Source: Escherichia coli
Lineage (GTDB): Bacteria; Pseudomonadota; Gammaproteobacteria; Enterobacterales; Enterobacteriaceae
NCBI RefSeq assembly: GCF_045037415.1
Contig: NZ_CP173438.1
DNA: 64,000 nt
Reading direction: 5' to 3' (one strand)
Part shown: positions 15,201 to 18,200 of the stretch, one piece after another
Layout of the letters: every line of letters begins with the position of its first letter
Numbering within the stretch: position 1 is the stretch's first letter
Position numbers: made by a program

Positions 15201-18200
15201 CAACGTTCCCCAATGTTCGTCTCTGGAGCATGAAAGCCCGCCCGATACCTTCCCCGAGCCAGGTAAAATTTCGAAAGATGGTTATCGTGTCTGGTTAACA
15301 TCGCATAACGATTTAGGCATTATCCGTTACATGGTCGCCATGGGAACGGCACATTATGTCGTCATGATCGACCCCGCTTCCTTTATTGATGTCATTCCCT
15401 ATAGCTCATGGCAAATTGATGCCGCCATTATTGGCAATGCCCATAACGTTGTCATAACCAGCAGCGATGAACTTGCTCAGGGAATTATTACCAGGCTACA
15501 AAAAACACCCGGTGAGCATATCGAAAATAATGGAATCATTTACGATATCCTGCCCTTACCGGAGATGAATATTTCGATCATCACCTGGGCTTCAACGAAA
15601 ATGTTGCAGAAAGGCTGGTATCGGCAAGTCTTTATTTGGTTACCGCTCGGGTTGGTGATTGGCCTGCTGGCAGCGATGTTTGTGCTGCGTATTTTGCGCC
15701 GTATCCAGTCACCGCATCATCGGCTGCAGGATGCTATCGAAAATCGTGATATTTGCGTGCACTATCAGCCGATTGTCTCCTTAGCCAATGGCAAAATTGT
15801 CGGTGCTGAGGCACTGGCGCGCTGGCCGCAGACAGACGGTAGTTGGTTGTCACCAGATAGTTTTATTCCGCTGGCACAGCAAACGGGCCTTTCTGAGCCA
15901 TTGACGCTACTGATTATAAGAAGCGTCTTTGAAGATATGGGCGACTGGCTGCGTCAGCATCCTCAGCAGCATATTTCGATCAATCTTGAATCCACCGTGC
16001 TCACCTCGGAAAAAATCCCGCAATTGCTGCGTGAAATGATCAATCACTATCAGGTTAATCCCAGACAGATCGCGCTTGAACTCACTGAACGCGAGTTTGC
16101 CGATCCGAAAACCAGCGCCCCGATAATTTCTCGCTACCGGGAGGCGGGCCATGAAATTTATCTCGATGATTTTGGTACAGGGTATTCAAGTTTAAGCTAT
16201 TTACAGGATCTGGATGTCGACATTCTGAAGATCGATAAATCTTTCGTTGATGCGCTGGAATATAAGAATGTCACGCCACATATCATCGAAATGGCAAAAA
16301 CACTGAAACTGAAAATGGTTGCGGAGGGAATCGAAACCAGTAAACAAGAAGAGTGGCTACGCCAGCATGGCGTGCACTACGGTCAGGGCTGGCTCTACAG
16401 CAAGGCATTACCGAAAGAGGATTTCTTACGCTGGGCCGAGCAACATTTGTGAATTATAGGGCTGACGGCACGCCGCACAGCCCGTCACGCTACCTACTCG
16501 TCGATGATTGACTCGAATCCGCCATAGATCATTCGCTTACCATCAAACGGCATGGACTCGCCGAACTCTTTCATCCGTGGGTCCGACATCATCTTTTGAT
16601 TAGCAGCGTCGCGGACCTCTTTTGAAGGGTATTCAATCCAGCTAAAGACAACCTCTTCATTCTCTTCCGCTTTCACCGCCATACGAAAATCGGTCACTTT
16701 ACCATCCGGTATATCGCTGGCCCAGCATTCGACAATACGAAGCGCCCCGAACTCTTTAAATAATGGCGCGGCCTTAGCGGCCATTTCCCGATAGGCATCC
16801 TTTTTATCGGCAGGAACGGCAACAACAAAACCATCAACATACTTCATCAGACATACCTCCGAAGCGTACTGCGCAGCCAGACAATTCTTGCGACGTCAGT
16901 TGTGGTTAAAGTTTAGCCATGTTGGGATTTTTTGACGAAATGGTAGGAGGCAGAAATGGGTGGGGGCCCTGCCAGCTACATCCCGGCACACGCGTCATCT
17001 GCCTTGGCTGCTTCCTTCCGGACCTGACCTGGTAAACAGAGTAGCGTTGCGGGAGAACCAACAGAGCCCCCATTGAGAGCGTTGAGAACCAACGCGCAGG
17101 CGCATTATCACTGCTGCCCCGGCTAATTGCAACCCATTGCGTGCCAGATGCTGGTTTCTTGCGCAATGCGGCTTCACTCGGGCGTTTTTCCAGATTATGC
17201 TGAAAAATTACCTCAGGAAGAAAAGATGGAAAAAGAAGATTCATTTCCCCAACGCGTCTGGCAAATCGTAGCCGCTATTCCCGAAGGCTATGTCACCACT
17301 TACGGTGATGTGGCGAAACTGGCGGGCTCGCCCCGTGCCGCGCGCCAGGTTGGCGGTGTGTTAAAGCGTCTCCCCGAAGGCAGCACCTTGCCCTGGCACC
17401 GGGTGGTTAATCGCCACGGCACCATTTCACTGACCGGACCGGATTTACAGCGTCAGCGACAGGCATTACTGGCAGAAGGTGTGATGGTGTCGGGAAGCGG
17501 GCAAATCGACTTGCAGCTTTATCGCTGGAACTACTAACCCTCTCCGGGCGGAGAGGGTTAACTTCGCTTAATATTGCGTTGGAGCTGGAACTGCCGAAGA
17601 CGGATTCACCTGGGTTGGTGAAGTTGAAGGTACGGTAGTCGTTGCGCCACCGCTAGCCTGAACCGGCACGGCGGTTTGCTGCACCGGCACCAATGTCAGG
17701 TCGGCTTTAGTTCCGCCCTGGTTGATCACCGGCTGAACGGTATCGGTAATAAATACCAGTTTGTCATTCACGGTAATCGCCGCACTCAACAGAATACGCG
17801 CGTTCGGCTGAACATCTGCCGGGTTAAATGGCAGAACAAAGCTGAATGGTGACTGTTTACCTTCGGTACGCACCGCTTTCTGCGCCAGCACTTTCGACGG
17901 CGCATCGGCTAACGACGCGTCAGAAAGTGTCACGGTCAGCACGGCATCAGGCGGCAGTGCGACTTTCTGACGGATCCAAACGGTACCGGAGACATTCGGT
18001 TGCTGGATAGCAGGTTGTTGTGTTGCTGAAATAGACGTATTTGCAGCCGGTGCTGGCGTCTGAATATCCGCGCTTTTATCTGCGCAAGCCGCCAACGCAA
18101 TCGCAACCGCTAAACCACTGGCCATGTGCACGAGTTTCATTCACTTCTCCTTATTATCAATGCACCAGCGGGCTAACTTTCCTCGCCGGAAGAGTGGTTA

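Follow-up and report, generated by a model that had tools for sequence, protein, structure and literature searches.

The minus strand at positions 16958..17071 of the analyzed E. coli DNA, a stretch of 64 kb that is called the window below, carries the gene ffs and specifies the mature 4.5S RNA of 114 nt. The assignment is based on identity to the K-12 gene, a match to the Rfam family RF00169, the hairpin fold of the RNA, and covariation. It is next to certain that this locus is the ffs gene of E. coli, which is essential, is present as a single copy, and makes the 114-nt 4.5S RNA, and that the two open reading frames (ORFs) lying over it are non-coding by-products, and the analyses that were made yielded no evidence against this explanation. 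Knowledge of ffs and the 4.5S RNA dates back to the 1970s-80s. Thus, the locus is an ordinary, long-known textbook gene with nothing new in the gene itself; its annotation is right both in K-12 and in the RefSeq records that were compared, and it has little weight as a discovery.

The original prediction had placed a 4.5S RNA gene of 114 nt on the minus strand at exactly this site, and this was borne out by the comparison with K-12. Read from 17071 to 16958, the minus strand begins with GGGGGCTCTGTTGG and ends with GGCAGGGCCCCCACCC, and the full 114-nt sequence is GGGGGCTCTGTTGGTTCTCCCGCAACGCTACTCTGTTTACCAGGTCAGGTCCGGAAGGAAGCAGCCAAGGCAGATGACGCGTGTGCCGGGATGTAGCTGGCAGGGCCCCCACCC. It was aligned with the curated ffs feature of K-12 MG1655 (b0455, NC_000913.3 476448..476561), and all 114 of 114 nt were identical. 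Because of this complete identity to a curated feature, both 16958 and 17071 can be regarded as exact ends of the mature RNA. The covariance-model search with Rfam that had been proposed as a check was run, and it was positive. The scan of the region 15000..19000 gave one match, namely RF00169 (Bacteria_small_SRP, clan CL00003) at 16967..17063(-), with an E value of 3.5e-14 and with 68.1 bits versus a gathering score of 40. The match covered model positions 1-97 of 97. It spans only 97 nt because the model does not extend over the whole mature E. coli RNA, which is longer by 8 nt on the 5' side and by 9 nt on the 3' side. The fact that the mature RNA extends beyond RF00169 also explains why the gene is annotated with 97 nt in PGAP records and with 114 nt in K-12.

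Next to the identity of the gene, its copy number was analyzed. An Rfam scan of the whole 64-kb window revealed ffs as the sole SRP RNA match. A megablast search with the 114 nt as query against 5426 complete E. coli genomes gave exactly one copy per genome in 5424 of them, and 5420 of these copies had an identity of at least 99%. Among the matches listed in this search, all loci were annotated as ffs and were 100% identical over the full length. These results bear on another reading of the locus, i.e., that it is a remnant or duplicate of ffs without function, such as a partial copy that an integrated island left at its far end. Fragments of 21 nt from the ffs 3' end do adjoin islands in other strains. 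However, the copy in the window is complete and matches the K-12 gene at every position, it has a promoter-like site of its own and the native gene order, and there is neither a second match to an SRP RNA model in the window nor, in nearly all E. coli genomes, a second copy. The full-length identity and the single-copy count refute the remnant or duplicate reading, the probability of which is practically nil.

The structure of the RNA was also characteristic. The fold of minimum free energy (MFE) was one long hairpin of -57 kcal/mol, with a z value of -3.15 in comparison to shuffled sequences. Both the MFE fold and the centroid fold contained the GGAA loop, a symmetric 4x4 internal loop (CAGG/AGCA), and an asymmetric loop (ACCA/A), and in the MFE fold the GGAA tetraloop was formed by nt 53-56 (window positions 17016..17019). 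The RNA thus has the architecture of the RF00169 type, a GNRA-closed hairpin with a symmetric and an asymmetric internal loop. The domain IV core (nt 43-66, 17006..17029(-)) has the sequence GGUCAGGUCCGGAAGGAAGCAGCC and, in this fold, contains the symmetric internal loop and the GGAA tetraloop. For the 24-mer core, GGTCAGGTCCGGAAGGAAGCAGCC, unchanged copies were present in at least 120 stretches of genomes belonging to Proteobacteria, Actinomycetota, Bacillota, and other groups. This core was also invariant in an alignment of 13 gammaproteobacterial sequences, which consisted of the window sequence and 12 homologues, including those of Enterobacter, Superficieibacter, Citrobacter, Pseudomonas, Rheinheimera, Haemophilus, and Vibrio. 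A second invariant element (13 of 13 aligned sequences) was the putative distal-site motif GUGCCG at nt 83-88 (16984..16989(-)), which we take to be part of the distal GTPase-docking site.

The same alignment was used to analyze covariation. With the E. coli fold, standard pairs were present in 92.3% of the cells, compared with 37-50% when the 3' partners were slid by 1-3 columns, a comparison that by construction favors the unslid register, as the structure was taken from the E. coli sequence itself. Compensatory changes on both sides were observed for 20 of the 42 pairs, and none of 500 column shuffles reached any of the observed covariation measures. The RNAalifold consensus, which is independent, contained the same helix, and in this case 18 of 37 pairs were compensatory. 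The helix is therefore kept by compensatory substitutions across species.

The roles of the 4.5S RNA are known from K-12. The M domain of Ffh binds the 4.5S RNA, which yields the signal recognition particle (SRP); the NG domain of FtsY contacts the tetraloop first, and the dimer of the Ffh and FtsY NG domains then docks at the RNA's distal end, which triggers GTP hydrolysis (PMC4737761). Because the RNA of the window is 100% identical to the K-12 RNA, Ffh binding, stimulation of the Ffh-FtsY GTPase, and essentiality were assigned to it as well. These functions are established in K-12, and on the basis of sequence identity they are expected to be the same here. The 114-nt product, a long and imperfectly paired hairpin, would bind the Ffh M domain via domain IV with its two internal loops and the GGAA tetraloop, and would thereby form the SRP, and the GGAA tetraloop would receive the receptor FtsY.

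The neighborhood of the gene was compared with other strains. The gene order was found to be tesB-ybaY-ybaZ-ffs-ybaA-pdeB, with tesB, ybaY, and ybaZ (MGMT family) on the upstream side of ffs and ybaA (DUF1428) and pdeB on the downstream side, and it is the same in K-12 and O157. The ORF of ybaZ is located at 17127..17537(+) and matched the MGMT DNA-binding domain of Pfam (4.5e-27), and the ORF of ybaA at 16494..16847(-) matched DUF1428 (3.5e-48). As a single copy between ybaZ and ybaA, ffs is the orthologue of b0455. Around ffs, the window differed from K-12 at 97 of 4799 sites (about 2% over 4.8 kb), without any indel, and therefore the window belongs to an E. coli lineage other than that of K-12. 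No difference from K-12 was present from 16946 to 17137, i.e., in ffs and its promoter, so that the 114 nt, the strand relation to the neighbors, the flanking genes, and the promoter region are all the same, and the gene itself shows no differences. In the strains SK1144 and 1444 the 401 nt around ffs were 100% identical. Three E. coli RefSeq records were compared at this locus; they contain an SRP RNA or ncRNA feature, and a CDS over ffs was absent in all of them.

A scan for promoter-like sites on both strands of the region 16700..17400 revealed only one, in comparison to a mean of 0.3 in shuffled sequences. It is of the sigma-70 type, consists of TTGCAA, a spacer of 17 nt, and GATAAT, and is located at 17104..17132 on the minus strand. 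It has been reported that the RNA-seq 5' ends of the 4.5S precursor are mainly at -26, that an earlier study had found a leader of 22 nt, and that the precursor of this essential RNA is a substrate of bacterial RNase P (PMC5499578). The published position of -26 corresponds to 17097 in the window. The last nucleotide of GATAAT is 17104, 7 nt upstream of 17097, and the hexamer is followed by the G+C-rich GCGCCTG and then by the putative start site. The promoter-like site at 17132..17104 thus fits the published start, although the match between the two is itself an inference. The 5' leader of the precursor would have about 22-26 nt and would occupy 17072..17097(-). Taken together, a sigma-70 promoter at about 17132..17104 would drive the minus-strand ffs transcript, a precursor with a short 5' leader would start near 17097, RNase P would remove the leader, and exonucleases would trim the 3' end.

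A canonical intrinsic terminator downstream of ffs was not found in the terminator scan, and therefore the formation of the 3' end cannot be read from the sequence and is described here according to the literature. Maturation of the 4.5S RNA at its 3' end reportedly occurs by exonucleolytic trimming (Li, Pandit and Deutscher 1998). The scan also gave a terminator-like match at 17080..17066, which lies across the 5' end of ffs; it was no better than matches in shuffled sequences (1.1 expected) and was regarded as a chance match.

The start of the divergent gene ybaZ, which specifies a DNA base-flipping protein of the MGMT family, is annotated in two ways, i.e., as a protein of 129 aa starting at 17148 in K-12 and as a protein of 103 aa starting at 17226 in PGAP records. 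The start of the 129-aa version is just 16 nt away from the -35 hexamer (17132..17127) of the divergent ffs promoter, and its first codons overlap the upstream part of the longer of the two ORFs that are described below.

The original prediction had stated that two ORFs cover the RNA gene and that both are artefacts. Both ORFs are indeed present, at exactly 16906..17244(-) and 16995..17177(-), and have lengths of 112 aa and 60 aa, respectively. The 112-aa ORF runs through ffs, and its upstream part lies opposite the 5' end of ybaZ, in antisense orientation (K-12 start codon at 17148). The 60-aa ORF has a GTG start and ends inside ffs. That they are artefacts was supported by the absence of Pfam matches, the number of open frames, the variation between genera, the compensatory substitutions in the RNA, and the tiny protein clusters. 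First, no Pfam match at E <= 1 was obtained for the 112-aa or the 60-aa ORF, in contrast to the strong matches of the flanking genes. Second, ORFs of at least 30 aa that overlap the RNA by at least 40 nt are present in five of the six frames (three sense and two antisense), a usual feature of a structured RNA that is stop-poor and has a G+C content of 60%.

Third, the ORFs are not conserved between genera. No more than 2 or 3 nt of the RNA are changed in Enterobacter, Citrobacter, and Superficieibacter, and none in L105. Yet, these three genera lack the 60-aa ORF, and the limits of the 112-aa frame vary between genera. The limits that were observed are -211 or further upstream to +148, where the ORF leaves the 260-nt flank that was compared, -205 to +148, -19 to +160, and -1 to +178.

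Fourth, exact look-ups of the products (16909-17244(-) and 16998-17177(-)) revealed clusters of only 9 members for the 112-aa ORF and 2 members for the 60-aa ORF, in contrast to the presence of the DNA in more than 5400 genomes. All cluster names were "hypothetical" or "uncharacterized", with the exception of one UniRef entry named "Transposase" (EDS92143.1, E. albertii). The 112-aa product is identical to ANK05803.1 of E. coli O25b:H4, a "hypothetical protein" in GenBank, and deposits with the same designation are present in a few GenBank genomes, for example CAR01799.1 (S88), AFG39350.1 (P12b), and ESU77918.1 (Shigella dysenteriae). For the 60-aa product there is one named deposit, the hypothetical protein CAQ90056.1 of E. 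fergusonii.

Alternatively, one or both ORFs could be true protein genes of a dual-function locus, perhaps translated from minor upstream transcripts. Both ORFs do exist, the 112-aa ORF is intact also in K-12 and O157, and a few GenBank and UniRef records carry the products as hypothetical proteins. In addition, minor RNA-seq 5' ends have been observed at about -153 and -127, i.e., upstream of the start of the 60-aa ORF at -105 (PMC5499578). The start of the 112-aa ORF at -172, however, is outside of these minor transcripts, and the near-zero divergence of this region accounts for the fact that the ORFs persist within E. coli. The missing Pfam family, the open frames in five of six, as predicted for a stop-poor sequence, the lack of a CDS over ffs in the RefSeq records, and the small clusters all argue against coding, and so does the variation of starts and stops in Enterobacter, Citrobacter, Superficieibacter, and L105, including the loss of the 60-aa ORF in three of them, next to an RNA that is almost unchanged. 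Furthermore, the substitutions inside the RNA keep the base pairs and have no codon-position pattern. A protein-coding function of the ORFs is therefore disfavored and would be highly improbable. Both ORFs are non-coding over-prediction artefacts, and we infer that they are not translated. The example illustrates for annotation that six-frame tracks and some older gene callers put "hypothetical proteins" over structured RNA genes, and the spurious products in GenBank and UniRef represent a contamination of databases by over-prediction.

The 3' end of ffs was also found to be a junction with islands in some strains. A contiguous 401-nt ffs region was missing in 64 of the 5424 E. coli genomes, and in the example genome that was compared the break point was 4 nt past the ffs 3' end. 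In NZ_CP151161.1 (1744660..1775972) a gene for a site-specific integrase follows ffs, and ybaA is located 31.2 kb further on. The cargo of this island comprises IS26 copies, class 1 integron remnants, and the genes floR, qnrS2, blaOXA-1, catB3, arr, and aac(6')-Ib-cr. The 25-mer TAGCTGGCAGGGCCCCCACCCATTT is a perfect direct repeat at both ends of the 31.2-kb island; it covers the last 21 nt of ffs (nt 94-114) and the adjacent ATTT. The repeat copy on the integrase side completes an intact ffs, and thus this junction keeps all 114 nt of the gene. The exact left junction of this island was present in 2 genomes only. In about 58 other genomes a different sequence, 80-95% similar, directly follows ffs; in one of them, NCTC86 (NZ_CP019778.1), an IS3 element and a short CDS for a site-specific integrase of 177 aa are located after ffs.

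Based on the repeat in NZ_CP151161.1, the corresponding 25 nt of the window, 16954..16978(-), are a putative attB. The site is empty in the window, because ffs is directly followed by ybaA. We lean towards the view that 16954..16978 is an empty attB for genomic islands that carry a tyrosine integrase, one of these islands being a 31-kb multidrug-resistance island, and the genome counts suggest that the ffs 3' end acts as attB in no more than about 1% of the E. coli genomes. An attachment site in ffs has been described for the phage phiEf11 in Enterococcus faecalis (PMC12540744). As in that system, a mobile element with an integrase would attach within the SRP RNA gene, at a core repeat of about 25-27 nt (PMC12540744), but the two cases differ in host, element, and core sequence, and the site in the window is empty. 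The E. coli repeat covers the 3' end of ffs. A narrow full-text literature search did not find ffs-linked islands in E. coli, a result that does not establish novelty. If the view is right, the SRP RNA gene would join the tRNA and tmRNA genes as integration sites of islands in E. coli, and the site might be of interest for tracking the chromosomal spread of resistance islands.

Two further RNA elements were detected in the Rfam scan of the whole window. The first is sraA (RF02029) at 34727..34822(+), with 105.6 bits versus a gathering score of 56; sraA is a known small RNA of E. coli and is expected in this chromosomal region. The second is the DnaX programmed ribosomal frameshifting element (RF00382), also a known element, at 265..329(-) with 96.8 bits versus a gathering score of 35, and therefore the minus strand carries dnaX at the beginning of the window.
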